DNA of 24,854 bases, taken from a virus (Duplodnaviria; Caudoviricetes). The first letter of the stretch is position 1, and the number at the start of each line of letters is the position of its first letter. The notes under the pieces were generated by a model. That model had not been told where the DNA came from. It saw only the letters and a program-made list of their open reading frames with translations, and did not search any database. This document shows, one piece after another, positions 1,239-23,391 of this stretch. The stretch is from the IMG/VR virus record IMGVR_UViG_3300009095_000068, positions 1 to 24,854 of that record, one strand, 5' to 3'. A program made the position numbers and the translations under genes.

Positions 1239-1283
1239 AACAGGGTGCGAACTAACGGGGTGCGAACTAACGGGGTGCGAACA
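1239..1283 (+). repeat. Three tandem 15-bp repeats AACRGGGTGCGAACW
   Basis: AACAGGGTGCGAACT / AACGGGGTGCGAACT / AACGGGGTGCGAACA; further GTGCGAA copies near 1220 and 1803. Confidence 0.93.
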
Positions 1284-1357
1284 CGGGGTTGAGGCAAAAA
1301 AAATTTTCGACAACGCTTGACAGCCCTTGCGACGATGATAAGATATGAGTGTGAGGG
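1267..1357 (+). promoter_or_regulatory. Strong sigma70-type promoter block, copy 1
   Basis: A-tract UP-like element, TTGACA (1317-1322), 16 nt, extended -10 TGnTAAGAT (1336-1344); block repeated at 1795-1883. Confidence 0.85.
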
Positions 1358-1410
1358 ACGGGGGCTCGACCGCGGAGGGCAGCGGAGTACCCCTCACGGA
1401 GGTATAGACC

Positions 1411-1710
1411 ATGACGACGACGATCAAGACCGTGCCGGTGACCACCGCTTCCAACAGCAACCCGGTCGCCTTCGTGCAGCCCAGGCACGCCGAGGGCACG
1501 GGCGACGCCTACCCCGATGGGTACTTCCCGGGCCGGTGGCTGGAGCCCGCGATCTACCGCCCGTTCAGCGACGACGAGGGGATCACTTGCCTCCGCGTCT
1601 ACCAGTTCAGCGATTCCGAGGTGGCCGAGGCGGGCGAGGATGCGTCGGCCCTGCCCTGGGATGACGATCACGTGATCGAGATCCGCATCACCGTCGGCCG
1701 CTTCGCCTGA
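1411..1710 (+). CDS. Array ORF1, small acidic hypothetical protein (99 aa)
   Basis: GGAGGT RBS, ATG, GC3-rich codons; first gene after promoter copy 1. Confidence 0.85.
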   Translation: MTTTIKTVPVTTASNSNPVAFVQPRHAEGTGDAYPDGYFPGRWLEPAIYRPFSDDEGITCLRVYQFSDSEVAEAGEDASALPWDDDHVIEIRITVGRFA

Positions 1711-1724
1711 CACTCATGGACCTT

Positions 1725-1790
1725 GGGGGGCTCCCCCCGCTCCCCTGCCGGGGAGCGTGAGGGATTCGCACCGTGGTGGGGACTTGGGAG
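1725..1790 (+). repeat. Inter-ORF spacer element, copy 1
   Basis: GGGGGGCTCCC, hairpin CGCTCCCC-TGCC-GGGGAGCG, then GGGATTCGCACC. Confidence 0.8.
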
Positions 1791-1794
1791 GACG

Positions 1795-1883
1795 CTAACA
1801 GGGTGCGAACACGGGTTGCGGCAAAAAAAGTTTCGACAACGCTTGACAACGCTTGCGACGATGCTAAGATATGGGTGTGGGGG
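1795..1883 (+). promoter_or_regulatory. Strong sigma70-type promoter block, copy 2
   Basis: About 10 differences from 1267-1357 over about 90 bp; TTGACA (1843-1848), 16 nt, TGcTAAGAT (1862-1870). Confidence 0.85.
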
Positions 1884-1902
1884 GAGAGACAGGAGGCCGA
1901 CC

Positions 1903-2196
1903 ATGAGGACCGACACCTACCGCGACTACGACCGGATCATCCCCGAGTCCGATCTGGAGCTTGCCGTCCTTGCGGAACTGGTGCGGCATCGGCTCCGCGT
2001 GTGGGAGGAGGGGACCGGCCGCACGCTCACCATCGTCTCAGTAGAGGACGGCATCTGGACCGTCGAAGAGAGCGAGGCGGACGCGTGGGCGATCGTCAAC
2101 GGCATCGACACCAAGCTGATCGGGGTCTGGCACGTTTGGGTCGCGCCGCCCAAAGGGGGACGCCCCGTCTCGGTGGAGAAGTGGCGGCTGGACTGA
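1903..2196 (+). CDS. Array ORF2, hypothetical protein (97 aa)
   Basis: AGGAGG RBS before ATG 1903 (MRTDTYRDYD...); follows promoter copy 2. Confidence 0.85.
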   Translation: MRTDTYRDYDRIIPESDLELAVLAELVRHRLRVWEEGTGRTLTIVSVEDGIWTVEESEADAWAIVNGIDTKLIGVWHVWVAPPKGGRPVSVEKWRLD

Positions 2197-2205
2197 CAAC
2201 GGCCC

Positions 2206-2285
2206 GGGCGGCTCCCGCGCCCGCCCCTTGATTGGGGCGGGGCGCGATTCGCACCGGGGGAGGGGGGTAAGGGAGACTGACGATG
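2206..2285 (+). repeat. Inter-ORF spacer element, copy 2
   Basis: GGCTCCC, hairpin CCGCCCC-TTGATT-GGGGCGG, GATTCGCACCGGGGG, G-run, AAGGGAGACTGACGATG. Confidence 0.85.
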
Positions 2286-2636
2286 ACCACCACGAAGAAG
2301 CTTCCCAGCGGGTTCTTTCGCCGTTACAACCCCAAGGCCGGTCGAGTCGTGAGCGTCACGCTTGATGGTGAGCGGGTCTGGGTCGCCTCGTTCTCTCGCG
2401 GCGTCTTGGTGGCTGAGGCAGCGTTCGCGCCCAAGCTCGGTGGGAACTTTGTCGATGCCCATGCCCGGACGATGGCCCTTTACGACACCGACCTCGGCCC
2501 GGCTTTCGTGAGCTTCGACCCCGCATGGCCGGAGGGGTCATGGGCCTTCTTTACCGACAGGAAGGCCGCGCACGATGCGTTTCAGACCACGGTTGCGGAC
2601 TACGAGAGGGCCGCGACATGGAAGCGGATCAAGTGA
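2283..2636 (+). CDS. Array ORF3, hypothetical protein (117 aa)
   Basis: GGGAG RBS supplied by the spacer; globular-looking composition. Confidence 0.85.
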   Translation: MTTTKKLPSGFFRRYNPKAGRVVSVTLDGERVWVASFSRGVLVAEAAFAPKLGGNFVDAHARTMALYDTDLGPAFVSFDPAWPEGSWAFFTDRKAAHDAFQTTVADYERAATWKRIK

Positions 2637-2644
2637 CCACCGCC

Positions 2645-2696
2645 GCTCCCCGGCCGCCCCTCACCGGGGGCGGTCGGGATTCGACCGGGGGCGGGG
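2645..2696 (+). repeat. Inter-ORF spacer element, copy 3
   Basis: GCTCCC, hairpin CCCGGCCGCCCC-TCACCG-GGGGCGGTCGGG, GATTCG-ACCGGGGG. Confidence 0.85.
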
Positions 2697-2748
2697 CTCG
2701 GATCGCCGGAGGGCAGGCGATGGGAGCCCGAAAGGGCAGGAGTAAGCC

Positions 2749-3132
2749 ATGACGACTGAAACGACCAGGTTGGACGGCGCGACTATCCGGGTTCTCACGC
2801 CGGATGGACGGGTGCTCTCGTGCCCGATGCTGCCCAATGACCCCGATTTGGACGTAAGCATCATCGAGGACGAGGAGACGGGCGAGGAGCGGGAGGAGCC
2901 TAGTCAGTTGTCCCGCATCGCCCGTTCCATCCGGGAGGGACTGGGCCTGGGACAGGATGATATCGCCGAGGCTCATGTTGTGGGTGAGCCCAATCCCGCC
3001 AGCATGGCCGAATGGGAGCGCGAACACGGCATCCTGTACGTCTGGGTGCCCAACAGTTATGAGATGCCGAGGACCGCCCGCCGCATCGCCGGGTTGGCGT
3101 GGGCCGATCCGATCCCCGCCCCGCGTGCCTGA
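2749..3132 (+). CDS. Array ORF4, acidic hypothetical protein (127 aa)
   Basis: AGGAG RBS; acidic tract IIEDEETGEEREEP. Confidence 0.85.
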   Translation: MTTETTRLDGATIRVLTPDGRVLSCPMLPNDPDLDVSIIEDEETGEEREEPSQLSRIARSIREGLGLGQDDIAEAHVVGEPNPASMAEWEREHGILYVWVPNSYEMPRTARRIAGLAWADPIPAPRA

Positions 3133-3162
3133 TACTCCTGCCCCCCGGGTGCCCGCGGCCCT

Positions 3163-3241
3163 GGGGGGCTCCCGGCCGCCCCTCGACGGGGGCGGCCGGG
3201 ATTCGCACTGGGGGGCGGGGGGGCAAGGGAGACCGACGATG
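3163..3241 (+). repeat. Inter-ORF spacer element, copy 4
   Basis: GGGGGGCTCCC, hairpin TCCCGGCCGCCCC-TCGACG-GGGGCGGCCGGGA, GATTCGCACTGGGGG, AAGGGAGACCGACGATG. Confidence 0.88.
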
Positions 3242-3502
3242 GCACGCCGCAAACATCCAAAGCCGACATACGAGGCTCACGTAGCCTCGCGCCGCGCTCG
3301 CGGGCTGGAGCCGATGACCGAAGAGGAGTGGCTGGCTAACCGCGAACGGGTGGCAGAGTCCCGCAGGCGACGCCGCGCTGCGCTGCGCGCGAAGCGGGAG
3401 ATGGAGATCTGCCCCACGTGCGGCGGCTACAAGTGGCATTCGATGATTGACCCGATTGTCACCCTCGATGACGACGAGCGCTGCGACTGCGGCCGCGACT
3501 GA
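3239..3502 (+). CDS. Array ORF5, basic protein with putative Zn site (87 aa)
   Basis: ATG supplied by the spacer (MARRKHPKP...); Arg-rich helix followed by CPTC...CDC. Confidence 0.8.
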   Translation: MARRKHPKPTYEAHVASRRARGLEPMTEEEWLANRERVAESRRRRRAALRAKREMEICPTCGGYKWHSMIDPIVTLDDDERCDCGRD

Positions 3503-3511
3503 ATCTCTTGC

Positions 3512-3544
3512 GGCGGGGTCGGGGGACAAAGGAGACCGACGATG
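3512..3544 (+). repeat. Spacer element 3' half (RBS part only), copy 5
   Basis: GGGGGACAAAGGAGACCGACGATG matches the end of copies 2 and 4. Confidence 0.75.
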
Positions 3545-3573
3545 ATCAGGACAACCCGAAGAGGAGGATGTAC

Positions 3574-3786
3574 TTGAACACAACGTCTAATACGCCGCAA
3601 CCCGTCCACCTCACCACGAAGGAAGTCGCCGCCAAGCTCGGCCTCAGCCCAGCCCGCGTGCGGCAACTCGCCGCGGAGCGGGGGGTGCGGCCCGCGGTGG
3701 ACCACCCACGGTTCAAGCTCTGGCACCCGAGTGTGGTTCGCCTGCTCTCGAAGCGGCGGCCGGTGGGGCGGCCGAGGGGGACGTAG
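3574..3786 (+). CDS. Small HTH DNA-binding protein (excisionase/MerR-like HTH) with a C-terminal AT-hook-like motif
   Basis: LTTKEVAAKLGLSPARVRQLA is HTH-like; RRPVGRPRG tail; TTG 3574 is 6 nt after GAGGAGG (alternative ATG at 3568). Confidence 0.85.
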   Translation: MNTTSNTPQPVHLTTKEVAAKLGLSPARVRQLAAERGVRPAVDHPRFKLWHPSVVRLLSKRRPVGRPRGT

Positions 3787-3954
3787 CGGCGCACGAAAGA
3801 GGGCCGGTGCGCCGTCGTCACCAGTTCCAGGCCCTATGCGTAACAGTCCCCGGCGGCGCGCAAGTGAACTCGCCACCGAGTCTGCCGGGGGGAGATGATC
3901 TCACGGCCATGCAGCCCGGAGCGTACTCCGGGTGATAGATACGAGGAGAACGCC

Positions 3955-4515
3955 ATGCTCACCGCCGCTTCGCTTACAGTTGTGTCGCTCGCCCTGACCG
4001 CCGGCCCCGGCACCACGCCCCCGCCCGGCCCCAACCACAGCATCCGCCCCTGCCCGGTCGGCCTGGTCCTGCACGATCCGCAACTCTACTGCGTGATCGA
4101 GGTCTCCCCGGCTGTCGAGCCCACCTTCCAGCCGGCGGGAACGGCGGTCGCGTGGGAATCCGGGGCGATGACCGACCATCTCTGGGTCTGGCGTGGCACC
4201 CTCATCGGCGCGCCCTACTCCGGTCACACGGTCGTGGTCCTGCCCATCGGGTCCGTCGTCAGCATCCACCTGTACCACGGCGGGGGCCTCTTCGGCCCCT
4301 GGCTCAACGGCCACACCGTCCGCCCCGGCGACTGGAACCTCGACGGCCAGGTCAACTCGGACGACATCAGCGCGTTCCTCCGCGACTGGCTGGCCGCCCC
4401 TCAGGGCCCACAGGCGATCACCGGCGAGGTGAGCCGCGGCGACTACAACCTCGATGGCTGGGTCAACCCCGCCGACATCTCGGCGTTCATCGAAGGCTGG
4501 CTGGGGTCGGTGTAG
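3955..4515 (+). CDS. Putative exported protein with C-terminal dockerin-like (EF-hand-like) repeat pair
   Basis: AGGAG RBS; hydrophobic N-terminus and Pro-rich linker; GDWNLDGQVNSDDISAFLRDW and GDYNLDGWVNPADISAFIEGW. Confidence 0.85.
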   Translation: MLTAASLTVVSLALTAGPGTTPPPGPNHSIRPCPVGLVLHDPQLYCVIEVSPAVEPTFQPAGTAVAWESGAMTDHLWVWRGTLIGAPYSGHTVVVLPIGSVVSIHLYHGGGLFGPWLNGHTVRPGDWNLDGQVNSDDISAFLRDWLAAPQGPQAITGEVSRGDYNLDGWVNPADISAFIEGWLGSV

Positions 4516-4980: not shown

Positions 4981-6237
4981 TCACAGCAGGCCGAACACGC
5001 CACCGCCTGGGCTCCCACCGCCCGGCCCCGGCGTCGGCGCGGTCGCCAGGTCGGGGCAATCCCCGCCTGACGCCACCCCGTGCCCGCAGACCTCGAACTG
5101 GCACCCCGCGCAGCACCCCTCGTCGTCCTCGCCGCCGGAGTATACCAGGCTCTCCACCTCGGTTCGCCACTCCCGCCGGTTGCACCCGCAGCTCATGCCG
5201 TCGGGGGCGGACGCGACGGACCATATCTCCTCCGTCCGCTCCCGACGCGAGCCCGTGCAGGACCGCGTGACGGTCTCCCGGATGTCCCATCCGCCGCGGG
5301 GGCAGCCGAAGGGCGGCGAGGGGTCGTCCCACCGGTCGCGGTACTCGTACGGTCGGTTGTACGCCGGGTCGATCGCATCGGCGTAGGACCGGCACACGAC
5401 CCGCACCTCCGGCTCGGATTCCTCGACGACGCGCTCGCACTCAGCGTTGTGCGTCACCGTCCGCTGCACAGTGATGACCTCTTTGCAGACGGTGCAGCCG
5501 TCGCGGGACACCTCCGCCCCGGTGTGGCTCACGGCCTCAAAGAACGTCACCCCGTCCATGCAGTCGCTGCATGGACGGTTGCTGCAGCACCACGAGTCCC
5601 CGACGTTGATGAGGTAGTCGTGGCCGCTGCGGTACGTCGCGGTGTAGTTCCAATCGAAGGTCGCCTTGCCGTCGTCGTCGAGTTCCCCGCCGCAGCAGAA
5701 GATGGCCCCGTTGCACGGCCCCTCATCCGTCTGGTGGGGGATGAGCACCGCGCACACGCGGTCGCACCCGCACTCGCACTCCCCGCCCCCGTCGGGCACG
5801 CAGTCGGGGTGGTCGCAGGCGGCGACGCCCTGGGGCACGCCAAGGCACTCGATCGTGATGCCCTCCATCGCCCCAGGCTCGGCGATGATCGCCCCCGGGG
5901 GGATCTGGTCGCGCCGGCGGGTGATGCCCAGCGAGCCTGCGGGCATGTAGCACCACGACCGGCCGGCCCGAGTGACCTTCACCGCCCCGCCGTACTTGCA
6001 GATGGCGGGCTGGTAGGTGCCCGGCGGCACGCCCGGCGGCAGGGGGCACACCACGTCGTCGCGGACCCAGATCGGCGGGTGGTCCGGCCAGCAGCCGACG
6101 TAGTTGCACGGGCAGAGGAGGCAGTAGAGGTGGTCGGGCGCGGGGCCGCACTCGTTCACCACCCGCGTCCCGTCGCGCGAGACCAGCACCCGGTCGCCCG
6201 TCGTCGGGTCGAGGATGAGCCGGCTGAGCTGGGTCAT
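4981..6237 (-). CDS. Cysteine-rich putative tail tip / receptor-binding protein (418 aa)
   Basis: TGATG coupling to the upstream gene; about 35 Cys by hand count; located at the distal end of the tail module. Confidence 0.75.
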   Translation of the reverse strand: MTQLSRLILDPTTGDRVLVSRDGTRVVNECGPAPDHLYCLLCPCNYVGCWPDHPPIWVRDDVVCPLPPGVPPGTYQPAICKYGGAVKVTRAGRSWCYMPAGSLGITRRRDQIPPGAIIAEPGAMEGITIECLGVPQGVAACDHPDCVPDGGGECECGCDRVCAVLIPHQTDEGPCNGAIFCCGGELDDDGKATFDWNYTATYRSGHDYLINVGDSWCCSNRPCSDCMDGVTFFEAVSHTGAEVSRDGCTVCKEVITVQRTVTHNAECERVVEESEPEVRVVCRSYADAIDPAYNRPYEYRDRWDDPSPPFGCPRGGWDIRETVTRSCTGSRRERTEEIWSVASAPDGMSCGCNRREWRTEVESLVYSGGEDDEGCCAGCQFEVCGHGVASGGDCPDLATAPTPGPGGGSPGGGVFGLL

Positions 6238-21483: not shown

Positions 21484-21759
21484 ATGAAAACCCTCTGGTT
21501 CCGCCAGGTGTACGTACCGCAGATCATCGCCGGGACAAAGACCCACACGGCGCGACGCCCATCGTCGCGCCTGCCGCGAGCGGGAGAGACTGTCGCTCTG
21601 AGTGTTGGTCCGCGCCCCCCATTCGCTCGTGCTCGGGTGACCTCGGTCGAGACGCGAGAGTGGGACGAGCTGTCCCCGGCAAAGCGGTCTGAGTTGCAGG
21701 CTCTCGGGATTGACTCAGGACCGATATGCTGGATTGAGTTCGTCGTTCTGCCGGCATGA
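21484..21759 (+). CDS. ASCH-domain protein (YqfB-like, 91 aa)
   Basis: F....IIAGTKTHTAR (GxKTxTxR), GETV, FARARVTSV and WIEF match the ASCH pattern. Confidence 0.85.
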   Translation: MKTLWFRQVYVPQIIAGTKTHTARRPSSRLPRAGETVALSVGPRPPFARARVTSVETREWDELSPAKRSELQALGIDSGPICWIEFVVLPA

Positions 21760-22801
21760 ACTCGAACGACGCGGTGCTTCGTCCGGCCGAGCCTCGGTAT
21801 CCACAGGAGTGCGGAGCGCGGCCGGTCAGCCGTTGCCATTGCATCCGCCACAGAGGCGATTTAGCCAGCCCCCGGATGAGGCGCGGGTGGCTGGTCACGA
21901 TGGATATGCGATGCGACTCGGCTTCACGCGCCGCGACCGCGTTCAACAGCCGCAGCCCAAGCCCCACCCCCTGATAGTCCGGCAGCACCACCAGGCGGTG
22001 TATCCGCCTCCTGCCTTTCCAACCGAAGGATGGCATCGTGGCGCAGAAGGCGACTGGGCGACCGTCGTGGCATGCCGCGTAGCACATCGCGGACGGGTGC
22101 AGGTCCGCGTCTAGATAGTGATGACGCCCAAACACTCGCCACAGACTCCGGTCGCACCTTGAGACCTCGAAGTTGATCGGCGGACGTTGAAGACGCCCCC
22201 ATGACGTTTCGCCGGTCGCCATGTCCACCACCCAATCCGGCTCCAACCACTCAAGCACGTCGTAGTGACAGGTGACGGCGACGAATTTCTTTCCGGCGGA
22301 TCGGACCATTCGGGCCACGCACATCGACGCGATCTTGGCCACCTGCCGATCAACCACGCTTGTGAACTCATCGAACACTGCTATGGGTGCGGGCCGGAGC
22401 AGGCACTTGGCCAGGTCACAACGGAACCGCTCGCCATTGCTCAGTGCGGCGTACGGACGCAACCACGCCGGCGGGCTCGCAAAGCCGACTGCGGCCAGGG
22501 TGTCGGTGATGGTCTTGGCAGAGAGGTCCGACGGGAAGGCATCGACTACCGCCCGGTCTGCTGGCCACTCATCCCCTGCGTAGAGCACGTCGCCATACGC
22601 CGCCCGGGCAACGGTAGACTTTCCCGACCCGCTTGGTCCCACAATGGCGCCGATGCTCCATTCCTCGTCCGCCGATGGCACGTCAACCGTGAACGCCTCG
22701 CGGCTTTCGCTGCCGATGCGAAGATCGAACAGGCCGGCAACCTGCTGCACCCGAAAACTGTTGACAATTGGGGTGGTGTTTACAACGTCAACACGTGGCA
22801 T
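21524..22801 (-). CDS. ABC ATPase - GNAT acetyltransferase fusion (425 aa; last ~78 aa antisense to ASCH)
   Basis: GPSGSGKST, LSNGE, AVFDEF, VTCH, then the acetyl-CoA motif RLVVLPDYQGVGLG; no TM partner gene. Confidence 0.92.
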   Translation of the reverse strand: MPRVDVVNTTPIVNSFRVQQVAGLFDLRIGSESREAFTVDVPSADEEWSIGAIVGPSGSGKSTVARAAYGDVLYAGDEWPADRAVVDAFPSDLSAKTITDTLAAVGFASPPAWLRPYAALSNGERFRCDLAKCLLRPAPIAVFDEFTSVVDRQVAKIASMCVARMVRSAGKKFVAVTCHYDVLEWLEPDWVVDMATGETSWGRLQRPPINFEVSRCDRSLWRVFGRHHYLDADLHPSAMCYAACHDGRPVAFCATMPSFGWKGRRRIHRLVVLPDYQGVGLGLRLLNAVAAREAESHRISIVTSHPRLIRGLAKSPLWRMQWQRLTGRAPHSCGYRGSAGRSTASFEFMPAERRTQSSISVLSQSREPATQTALPGTARPTLASRPRSPEHERMGGADQHSERQSLPLAAGATMGVAPCGSLSRR

Positions 22802-23391
22802 TTGAGCCCCCTCTGCTCCATCTCTTCATAAATCTCTCGCTGCTGCGTTTCCGTCTCGCACTCGATAAGCACACCCAGCTGTTCGGTGAGCTGACGCCCC
22901 TCCTCCGGCTCAGCCGGCGTCAGCCCGTCCAGCAGGTCCGCCAACTCCGCGTCCGTGAACCCCGTATCGGGCAGGACGTCCTTCGGCAGCGTGTCCAGAA
23001 GGCTCGCCAGCGTCTCGTCGTCCCATGTCGCCAGTTCCGCCGTCCGGTTGTCCGCGATGGCGAACGCCACCGCCTCCACCGACGTGTCGTCCACCACCAC
23101 GGCGGCGATGTGCGTCCAGCCCAGGCTCTTGGCCGCCGCCAGCCGGCCGTTTCCGGCCCGGACCACCATCCCTTCCCGCTGCACCACGATGGGCAGCCGC
23201 TGCCCCCACCGGGACAGCGACGCGGCGATGGCGTCGAGGTTGCGCTGGTCGTGCCTGCGGGCGTTGGACGCGTCCGGGGTCAGATCGGCGATGGGAACAG
23301 CCAGGTGCCGAAGCGGCTCCGCGATGTAGTCGAGGCGCAGGGCCGCCCCTCCCTGTGCGGGTACTGGATTGTTAGCATGCTTTTCCATCAT
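22780..23391 (-). CDS. ParB/Srx N-terminal domain protein (203 aa)
   Basis: IADLTPDASNARRH...IAASLSRWGQRLPIVV...AGNGRLAAA...IADNRTAELATWD; ATGA coupling. Confidence 0.9.
   Translation of the reverse strand: MMEKHANNPVPAQGGAALRLDYIAEPLRHLAVPIADLTPDASNARRHDQRNLDAIAASLSRWGQRLPIVVQREGMVVRAGNGRLAAAKSLGWTHIAAVVVDDTSVEAVAFAIADNRTAELATWDDETLASLLDTLPKDVLPDTGFTDAELADLLDGLTPAEPEEGRQLTEQLGVLIECETETQQREIYEEMEQRGLKCHVLTL

Follow-up and report, generated by a model that had tools for sequence, protein, structure and literature searches.

The window, that is, the whole 24,854-nt stretch of viral DNA analyzed here (IMG/VR record IMGVR_UViG_3300009095_000068), belongs to an uncultured HK97-type phage and carries a variable, early-type array with five ORFans (ORF1 to ORF5), a terminal HTH gene, two identical sigma70 promoters, and a repeated spacer made of a hairpin and ATTCGCACC. 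The region has a GC content of ~67%, a single cassette measures ~400 nt, and all features described below lie on the plus strand. Three copies of GGTGCGAAC with a 15-bp period (1244–1282) are located between divergent promoters, upstream of the sigma70-type promoter P1 (1317–1344; TTGACA-16-TAAGAT with a TG extension), and another copy (1802–1810) shares the segment 1802–1870 with the second sigma70-type promoter, P2 (1843–1870). Both promoters are embedded in a 61-nt repeat with 90% identity between the copies, and they precede only ORF1 and ORF2, two of the five cassettes. The GGTGCGAAC repeats, judged by their sequence, are likely a protein-binding site; the exact motif GGTGCGAAY occurs six times in the window against 0.6 expected (0 of 100 shuffles), and a candidate stoperator-like role was considered for it.

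ORF1 (1411–1710) and ORF4 (2749–3132) encode acidic proteins of 99 and 127 aa, respectively, ORF2 (1903–2196) and ORF3 (2283–2636) proteins of 97 and 117 aa, and ORF5 (3239–3502) a basic 87-aa protein with Cys pairs. ORF1 has no family, and the Atlas gave no family name for either ORF1 or ORF3; in a protein search covering ORF3, ORF4, and ORF5, the first two matched only themselves and ORF5 matched one relative, at 84% identity. A single-sequence structure model of ORF2 reached a pLDDT of 54. The small HTH gene closing the array (3568–3786) is a candidate regulator, with a match to HTH_17 (PF12728; E 3e-4, below the cutoff) and to the DNA-binding PHROG 597.

The spacer is present in four copies, located at 1738–1772 (a GC hairpin followed by ATTCGCACC at 1764–1772), 2209–2255 (GCTCCC, the hairpin, and ATTCGCACC at 2247–2255), 2645–2686 (a hairpin at 2649–2678 and the 9-mer, one base short; fold z −3.1), and 3140–3209 (hairpin 1 at 3140–3169, hairpin 2 at 3171–3200, and ATTCGCACT at 3201–3209; fold z −5.5, with 0 of 200 shuffles). 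Among these copies, 3 of the 12 pairs of the hairpin show double changes. In related strains, known here from contigs of 7 of the 24 sequencing runs listed, a UUCG loop and an exchange between GAAA and GCAA loops were observed; because these are stable RNA loops, they indicate an RNA structure.

In the same relatives, the order and content of the array genes differ, different genes are joined at the spacer, and other genes follow the same spacer and RBS. The joints (2673 to 3521 and 3491 to 2640) fall within the direct-repeat spacer, suggesting that cassettes would be shuffled by homologous recombination within it. As for the suggestion in a preliminary description of this DNA that inverted ends define a mobile cassette, the cassettes do vary among strains, but the joints lie in a direct repeat and not at those ends.

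The searches recovered no relative carrying the complete array. Among viral contigs, the promoter patterns matched a single unrelated one; in metagenomes, they matched one unrelated contig and the record of the window itself. The spacer pattern retrieved 120 viral loci (20 of 64 parts scanned) without a comparable hairpin, the best one reaching −0.45 kcal/mol per base, vs. −0.71 to −1.04 here, whereas the 47 viral loci and one genome locus found with the spacer-plus-RBS pattern looked like chance matches in coding sequences, none of them with a BLAST match to the array. Queries with the HTH gene and with the ORF at 365–865 returned five distant loci and none, respectively; cultured phages gave one spurious 56-nt match; and among the 13 relatives found through the capsid protein (50–58% identity), the array was absent from the 5 that were searched.

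According to the preliminary description, the sequence after each stop codon is complementary to the RBS of the same ORF. All six stretches that it quoted were found where it placed them, and the generalization is partly confirmed: the match beats chance for ORF4 and ORF1, is borderline for ORF5 and weak for ORF2, as the description had already noted for the latter, and is absent from ORF3, which it had not listed. Read from the sequence, a complement of the gene's own RBS follows the stop codon in two of the five genes and possibly in a third. The ORF4 leader (2722–2744) consists of GGGAGCCC (2722–2729), GAAA, and the RBS GGGCAGGAGTA (2734–2744), a design that recurs in one relative with GCAA replacing GAAA. 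The perfect complement of this RBS (3133–3143) starts, exactly as described, with the first post-stop base and forms 11 pairs with a duplex energy of −22.7 kcal/mol (p 0.000–0.015 against dinucleotide shuffles and <0.0001–0.002 against contig windows, over four window sizes), a strength equalled by none of 240 control phage genes; its first 7 nt, ahead of hairpin 1, are predicted to be single-stranded. In the translation initiation region of ORF1 (1390–1414), which includes the SD GGAGGT (1398–1403) and the start codon, the pairing is longer than claimed, involving 1714–1730 of the post-stop segment (1711–1730) with an intervening spacer looped out, but its significance depends on the window (p 0.04–0.20 for dinucleotide shuffles and 0.005–0.22 for contig windows).

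The RBS region of ORF5, GCAAGGGA (3223–3230), and its post-stop pyrimidine tract (3504–3511) form the eight pairs reported, one of them G-U, with p ~0.05 in the narrowest window and 0.2–0.8 in wider ones, and 16 of the 240 controls were as strong. The spacer that follows this tract in some relatives is missing here. Tail alleles of ORF5 in relatives retain the pyrimidine tract and, by eye and on unlinked contigs, pair over 7–8 nt with the relatives' RBS allele GCAGGAGA, as would be expected of compensatory changes; counting against self-pairing, one run contains both this RBS allele and a CTCTTGC tail. For ORF2, dinucleotide p values were 0.11–0.43 and the match consists in part of the conserved GCTCC of the spacer repeat; for ORF3, no significant head-to-tail match was found (dinucleotide p 0.37–0.99). 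ORF1, ORF4, and ORF5 share the register stop-NN-CTC-N-TG, found in 0 of 240 controls, in which N appears, on a reading of the sequences, to vary in step with the start region of the same gene. That the partner changes with each RBS is accordingly true in part: the TA/TA extension of the ORF4 pairing matches only its own RBS, but the tail of ORF1 is equally complementary to the start codon and SD of ORF2, and the ORF4 tail fits the ORF5 leader better than the ORF5 tail does.

When all five genes were considered together by duplex energy, the assignment of each tail to its own leader ranked 3, 3, 6, and 11 among 120 possible assignments for the four window sizes. The summed duplex energy of the set gave P 0.0009 relative to five random control genes, and P 0.087 without ORF4, where the controls come from rough ORF prediction and have 62% GC vs. 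~67% here and all tests were picked after the pattern had been seen. Because the leaders are G-rich and the tails C-rich, any pairing is favored, and in wide windows cross pairs were frequently as strong as own pairs.

In folding models with the ORF held open, which is an assumption of ours, own head-to-tail pairing of ORF1 through ORF5 was 0.98, 0.85, 0.30, 0.69, and 0.30, ranking first among the 120 assignments here and in all six further settings, with P 0.0006 for the sum relative to five random genes out of 120 controls. Cross pairing in the same model reached 0.99 between the ORF1 tail and the ORF2 start region, and 0.49 between the ORF4 tail and the ORF5 leader, vs. 0.30 for the ORF5 tail itself. 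When shuffling was restricted to the 12 bases that follow the stop, pairing stayed as high in 0 of 100 cases for ORF1, 1 for ORF4, 6 for ORF2, and 11 for ORF5. Blocking 5 post-stop nt lowered own pairing to ≤0.13 for ORF1, ORF3, ORF4, and ORF5. In free equilibrium folding, which applies to a ribosome-free message, own pairing was only 0.00–0.03 for these same four genes, ORF2 being the exception. The proposal that each cassette closes on itself is plausible for ORF4 and ORF1, and perhaps for ORF5 and ORF2, in the open-ORF models alone. The comparison of pairing energy with shuffled flanks, which the preliminary description had put forward as a check, favors ORF4 and, depending on the window, ORF1, with ORF5 borderline, ORF2 weak, and ORF3 without a match.

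The explanation that we tentatively prefer, with a confidence slightly short of an even chance, is that an occlusion of the SD by 5'-3' pairing, of the icaR type, travels with each cassette, so that ORF4, ORF1, and probably ORF5 would damp their own translation. The RBS, the ORF, and the tail would move as a unit, and therefore a match to the gene's own tail would survive reordering, whereas a match to a neighbor would not. The folding predictions suggest that ribosomes would load on the nascent RNA while the tail is not yet made and that, after its synthesis, the 7-nt pyrimidine strand exposed on it could capture the SD. A ribosome at the stop would cover this strand and reopen the start site, and the expected outcome is early expression that later declines. 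If this is correct, 5'-3' hiding of the SD would be a reusable design, repeated with different sequence across exchangeable cassettes, and it would account for the self-limitation of early genes that have only just been shuffled, with no need for a regulator devoted to them.

A stronger version, which we regard as unlikely, would make the mobile cassettes carriers of a latch reset by ribosomes: with the anti-RBS lying within the footprint of a ribosome at termination, each finishing ribosome would reopen the adjacent start site of its own gene, keeping the message on during ribosome traffic and locking it off once traffic lapses. Each newly captured ORFan would thereby acquire a portable self-timer, and in ORF4 a 7-nt SD/anti-SD toehold would replace a pair of local hairpins with two long-range helices. 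The location of the anti-RBS right at the stop poses the question of whether termination can reopen initiation of the same bacterial gene.

The most serious competitor of self-damping, somewhat improbable in our assessment, is that the complementarity is a by-product. Under this explanation, the post-stop bases are simply the C-rich 5' edge of a stem-loop spacer resembling the PeSL elements of T4-type phages, whose stems are described as poly-G/poly-C (PMC2839356); the spacer would serve as an attenuator, stabilizer, or recombination linker, G-rich leaders would match it loosely, and ORF4 would be a lucky or historical extreme without a present function. The strength of cross pairs in wide windows, the loss of set significance upon removal of ORF4, and the lack of closure of four of the five genes in free folding are all consistent with this explanation. 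Conversely, none of the 240 controls attains the strength of ORF4, shuffles of the first 12 post-stop bases almost never restore the ORF1 and ORF4 pairing, the own assignment ranks first in the open-ORF model, and the ORF1 tail is complementary to a start codon, as would not be the case for a generic C-rich arm. Decidedly unlikely, in our view, is translational coupling, whereby the tail would pair locally with the downstream gene's leader, which would be opened by the ribosome finishing upstream. The duplex of the ORF4 tail with the ORF5 leader (−21.0 vs. −22.7 kcal/mol for its own) and the near-complete pairing of the ORF1 tail with the ORF2 start region argue for coupling, as does local junction folding, in which the best partner was the next leader in two of five rows vs. 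the own leader in one. The segment 3130–3248 folded alone also pairs the tail with the G-run preceding the ORF5 RBS, but this helix ends short of the SD. Furthermore, ORF2 is driven by its own promoter, neighboring genes vary among strains, the TA/TA extension of ORF4 suits its own RBS only, and, when the upstream spacer was included so that both tails were present, the SDs of ORF3, ORF4, and ORF5 paired with their own tails at 0.29, 0.78, and 0.52 and with the previous ones at 0, 0, and 0.21.

Action in trans appears very unlikely. Processing or termination at the spacer would release short structured RNAs, or 3' ends that expose CUCCU, and these would bind SDs of other phage or host mRNAs; or else the HTH protein would bind the hairpins, as do Aca1 and Aca2. 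The 7-nt strand predicted to be unpaired ahead of two strong hairpins and a second CCCTGT-type tract, found in relatives in a hairpin loop after ORF5, are compatible with such action; trans pairing could not be excluded by the authors of the icaR study (PMC3868564), and Aca RNA motifs have been found between adjacent genes (PMC13551039). Against it, the spacers contain no U-tailed terminator, a search of Rfam returned no family and three chance-level matches, and no Acr or Aca family was matched in Pfam, PHROGs, and NCBIfam, which novel Acrs would escape. The outer stem closed by the own tail and RBS of ORF1, ORF4, and ORF5 in circular-junction folding, together with the variable cassette order, is what would be expected of an integron-like DNA attachment site, where tail and leader meet in an excised circle and fold into a recombination hairpin, the inverted ends defining the mobile unit. 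Integron cassettes recombine via hairpin-folded attachment sites. For the array, we consider this origin extremely unlikely and rejected both it and inverted ends as mobile ends: the joints fall in a direct repeat, the own junction was the best partner in only one of five rows, the loops are of RNA type, and the 30 proteins scanned from the incomplete contig included no integrase.

To our knowledge, 5'-3' pairing that hides the SD has been experimentally proven for only a few bacterial mRNAs, namely icaR and those of type I toxins. Type I toxins are small hydrophobic peptides, whereas the array proteins, of 87–127 aa, are not hydrophobic (maximum 19-residue hydropathy 0.29–1.19), and a type I toxin system was rejected. 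No minus-strand sigma70 promoter was detected within 1320–3800. Sequestration of the SD by a far-downstream anti-SD would be shared with hok and aapA, but the pulse of translation from nascent mRNA that the preliminary description derived from this analogy does not follow: aapA3 is blocked by metastable hairpins while nascent, is activated by 3' truncation, and has an antisense antitoxin (PMC6733600). The closer precedent is icaR of Staphylococcus aureus. In its mRNA, a pyrimidine motif of ~7 nt downstream of the ORF base-pairs with the SD and blocks initiation (PMC3868564). The array likewise has a 3' motif complementary to the SD of the same gene, clearly in ORF4, partly in ORF1, borderline in ORF5, and not in ORF3. 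The icaR motif lies 260 nt past the stop codon of one chromosomal gene and forms an RNase III substrate (PMC3868564), whereas here the motif begins 1–4 nt after the stop, and several of the shuffled phage cassettes carry their own sequence version of it. In hbs mRNA of Bacillus subtilis, long-range pairing of the 5' and 3' UTRs is tied to ribosome occupancy (PMC5737220), but that 14-bp helix modulates RNase Y cleavage and does not hide the SD. In the phage literature searched, which did not cover most subscription journals, no report of a post-stop anti-RBS was found.

The architecture of the array is reminiscent of PeSL cassettes, in which ORFans are split by repeated poly-C/poly-G stem-loops ending in an SD and ATG, strong sigma70 promoters have an AT-rich upstream tract, and gene content changes at the repeats (PMC2839356; PMC4122927). 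All three traits recur here, including a turnover of genes at this element from one relative to another. Each PeSL contains a promoter, in contrast to two of the five cassettes here, the host phage is of HK97 type, and the passages on PeSLs considered describe no tail-to-RBS complementarity. In acr-aca operons, repeated DNA motifs accompany the promoter, and RNA hairpins separate the genes (PMC13551039). The array lacks a match to the Acr and Aca families in the databases named above and its promoter-side motif is direct and asymmetric rather than inverted, but it shares with these operons small genes after a strong promoter, an HTH gene, promoter-side DNA repeats, and intergenic RNA hairpins.

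The window (24,854 nt) encodes an HK97-type tailed phage, with terminase, portal, head protease, major capsid and head-tail connector genes on the minus strand (Pfam and PHROG assignments), and carries on the plus strand a cassette block (1244-3786) consisting of two promoters, five ORFs and a closing HTH gene (3568-3786, plus strand). The two sigma70 promoters, recognized by sequence at 1317-1344 and 1843-1870 (plus strand), are nearly identical and of host type, so that the block genes are probably early genes. ORF1-ORF5 (1411-1710, 1903-2196, 2283-2636, 2749-3132 and 3239-3502; 87-127 aa, GC3 of 0.79-0.93) belong to no family in Pfam, PHROG or NCBIfam, with ORF5 producing a single sub-cutoff match. 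A short ORF (3542-3573) starts at 3542 behind a cassette-type ribosome-binding site (RBS); the HTH gene's own RBS lies within this ORF, which possibly acts as a leader for coupling.

ORF1-ORF4 are each followed by a repeated spacer (1738-1772, 2209-2255, 2645-2686 and 3140-3209), missed in the preliminary description, in which GCTCCC precedes a GC hairpin whose loop varies, and ATTCGCACC then gives way to a G-rich stretch that extends into the next RBS. Across the four copies, 3 of the 12 predicted spacer pairs display double changes. Read on the other strand, the spacer 9-mer is GGTGCGAAY, a motif that is also located upstream of both promoters and has six exact copies in the window versus 0.6 expected. 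The sites of this asymmetric 9-mer (1244-1282, 1764-1772, 1802-1810, 2247-2255 and 3201-3209) are forward upstream of the promoters and reversed within the spacer; they are candidate operator or stoperator-like sites for the HTH protein. Downstream of ORF4, the predicted fold consists of a free 7-nt strand followed by two hairpins (z -5.5).

No whole array of a relative was found in the public collections searched, and the comparison draws on contigs from 7 runs (4 studies) of the 24 metagenome runs listed, aligned at 80-85% likeness and representing related strains rather than a single genome; one of the runs, X1, is possibly that from which the window derives. In run X2, an 842-nt contig links ORF3, by way of a complete spacer, to position 3521 and lacks ORF4 and ORF5; in a second contig, the spacer is joined at 2640 to an ORF5 allele. 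At loose ends located at 3241, 3222 and 2266, contigs of X2, X7 and X8 carry this spacer and RBS followed by different genes, and X5 has the same ORF5-to-HTH junction as the window. The block is thus very probably a strain-variable array of shuffled cassettes, a conclusion much firmer than the regulatory one considered below. A low-depth X2 contig (3.6) joins 1256 to 1813, which suggests that the unit of first promoter, ORF1 and spacer is a promoter-bearing insertion missing in some strains. Another X2 contig (record 4; 2,024 nt) has only the Cys-rich C-terminal portion of ORF5 in common with the window (3374-3487), and so exchange may involve domains besides whole cassettes. One relative has a UUCG loop, and a GAAA loop is exchanged for GCAA; since these are stable loops, the structures appear to work at the RNA level. 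In X4 and X5 (loose end behind 3519), the hairpin after ORF5 is kept and a second pyrimidine tract, in its loop, complements by eye the G-rich leader (window 3520-3534). In X3 and X8 (record 29), with a loose end before 2209, the bases ahead of the spacer, which may be coding, complement an ORF2-type start region (Shine-Dalgarno sequence [SD] and start codon, with the spacer looped out).

All six sequence stretches quoted in the preliminary description lie at their reported positions, and its claim that each tail, the bases just after a stop codon, complements the RBS of the same gene holds for some genes but not all. The ORF4 tail forms 11 perfect pairs with its own RBS, beginning at the first post-stop base (-22.7 kcal/mol), a strength that is well beyond chance and that no gene in a control set of 240, drawn from 45 GC-rich loci, attains. 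For ORF1, significance depends on the sequence window (dinucleotide p 0.04-0.20), and none of 100 tail shuffles was as strong in the open-ORF model. The same duplex and tail-shuffle tests place ORF5 at the border of significance, give a weak match for ORF2 and reveal none for ORF3. The five-gene set exceeds the controls with P 0.0009, or 0.087 with ORF4 left out, and the register stop-NN-CTC-N-TG is common to ORF1, ORF4 and ORF5 and absent from all 240 controls; all these complementarity statistics are post hoc. The ORF5 RBS allele GCAGGAGA occurs in X2 and X7, and the ORF5 tail alleles of relatives (ATCTCCTGC, CCCTCCTGC and CCCTCTTGC) each pair with it over 7-8 nt by eye. Because RBS and tail lie on separate contigs, the alleles represent a conserved anti-SD tract, not proven covariation.

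The further proposal that each cassette closes on itself depends on the folding model. With the ORF held open, own pairing reaches 0.98, 0.85, 0.30, 0.69 and 0.30 for ORF1-ORF5, whereas free equilibrium folding yields 0.00-0.03 for all except ORF2 (0.8). In the open-ORF model, the own assignment of tails to leaders ranks first of 120 (P 0.0006 for five random genes, drawn from 120 of the controls, reaching the same sum), as it does in six of six further settings with a shorter 60-nt loop, which inflates pairing probabilities. The suggestion that the partner changes with each RBS is borne out in part: the ORF1 tail with ORF2 and the ORF4 tail with ORF5 equal or exceed an own pair.

The anatomy, the complementarity and the differences between strains at the spacer are established; a functional own-tail brake can be added tentatively, at somewhat below even probability. 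Once the ORF is transcribed, the exposed tail is predicted to capture the SD, and initiation would fall. A ribosome with a stop codon in the A site keeps ~5-7 downstream bases single-stranded, and a terminating ribosome would thereby reopen the SD; blocking five post-stop bases in the model lowers pairing to at most 0.13 for ORF1, ORF3, ORF4 and ORF5, a drop that ORF2 escapes. Recombination within the spacer would carry RBS, ORF and tail as one unit, so that an own-RBS match would be heritable and a neighbour match would not. The weak point of the brake is that modelled closure is confined to the open ORF, the ribosome-free message being predicted to adopt alternative structures in which the SD is often sequestered all the same (paired at 0.27-0.88).

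That the tail match is a by-product without function, as the P value obtained without ORF4 would allow, is unlikely, though a serious contender. The cross-pairs with ORF2 and ORF5 favour coupling to the next gene, but with both tails present in the model the own tail is preferred for ORF3, ORF4 and ORF5, and we consider coupling improbable. Action in trans or through a protein is more doubtful again, and a DNA site is very improbable, the attachment-site version being disfavoured because the own leader is the best partner in only one of five rows of circle-like junctions.

The own-tail brake has a counterpart in icaR: there, a 7-nt motif 260 nt past the stop codon base-pairs with the SD, and binding is recovered by a compensatory mutation (PMC3868564). 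The putative brake would work likewise. A PeSL region works similarly (PMC2839356; PMC4122927), but this identity was rejected because promoters are absent from most of the spacers. The reading of the block as a type I toxin system was also rejected, and the translation pulse from nascent mRNA, previously drawn from hok and aapA, does not follow, since aapA3 mRNA is silenced while nascent too (PMC6733600). The acr-aca operons have a similar layout (PMC13551039), with no family match in the block. Our literature search found no report of a post-stop anti-RBS in a phage; by its sequence, the array is particular in placing a putative anti-RBS at the stop codon, repeated over exchangeable cassettes.

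Elsewhere in the window, an inverted repeat (944-1050; fold z -10.4) with perfect 32-bp arms and a 43-nt spacer lies just downstream of a leftward promoter-like site (1119-1090), and X1 contigs break at the arms of the repeat; it may serve as an origin, form a cruciform or be cut by RNase III. A secreted-looking protein (3955-4515) has a dockerin domain (PF00404 above cutoff, GC-type dockerin below); the dockerin domain is linked to Planctomycetota, which would hint at the host. Upstream of terminase, 21524-23388 encodes an ABC-ATPase-GNAT fusion (PHROG 11143) as well as a ParB-like protein, and the opposite strand carries a small ASCH-like ORF (21484-21759). The tail module ends with a 418-aa Cys-rich ORFan (4981-6237).
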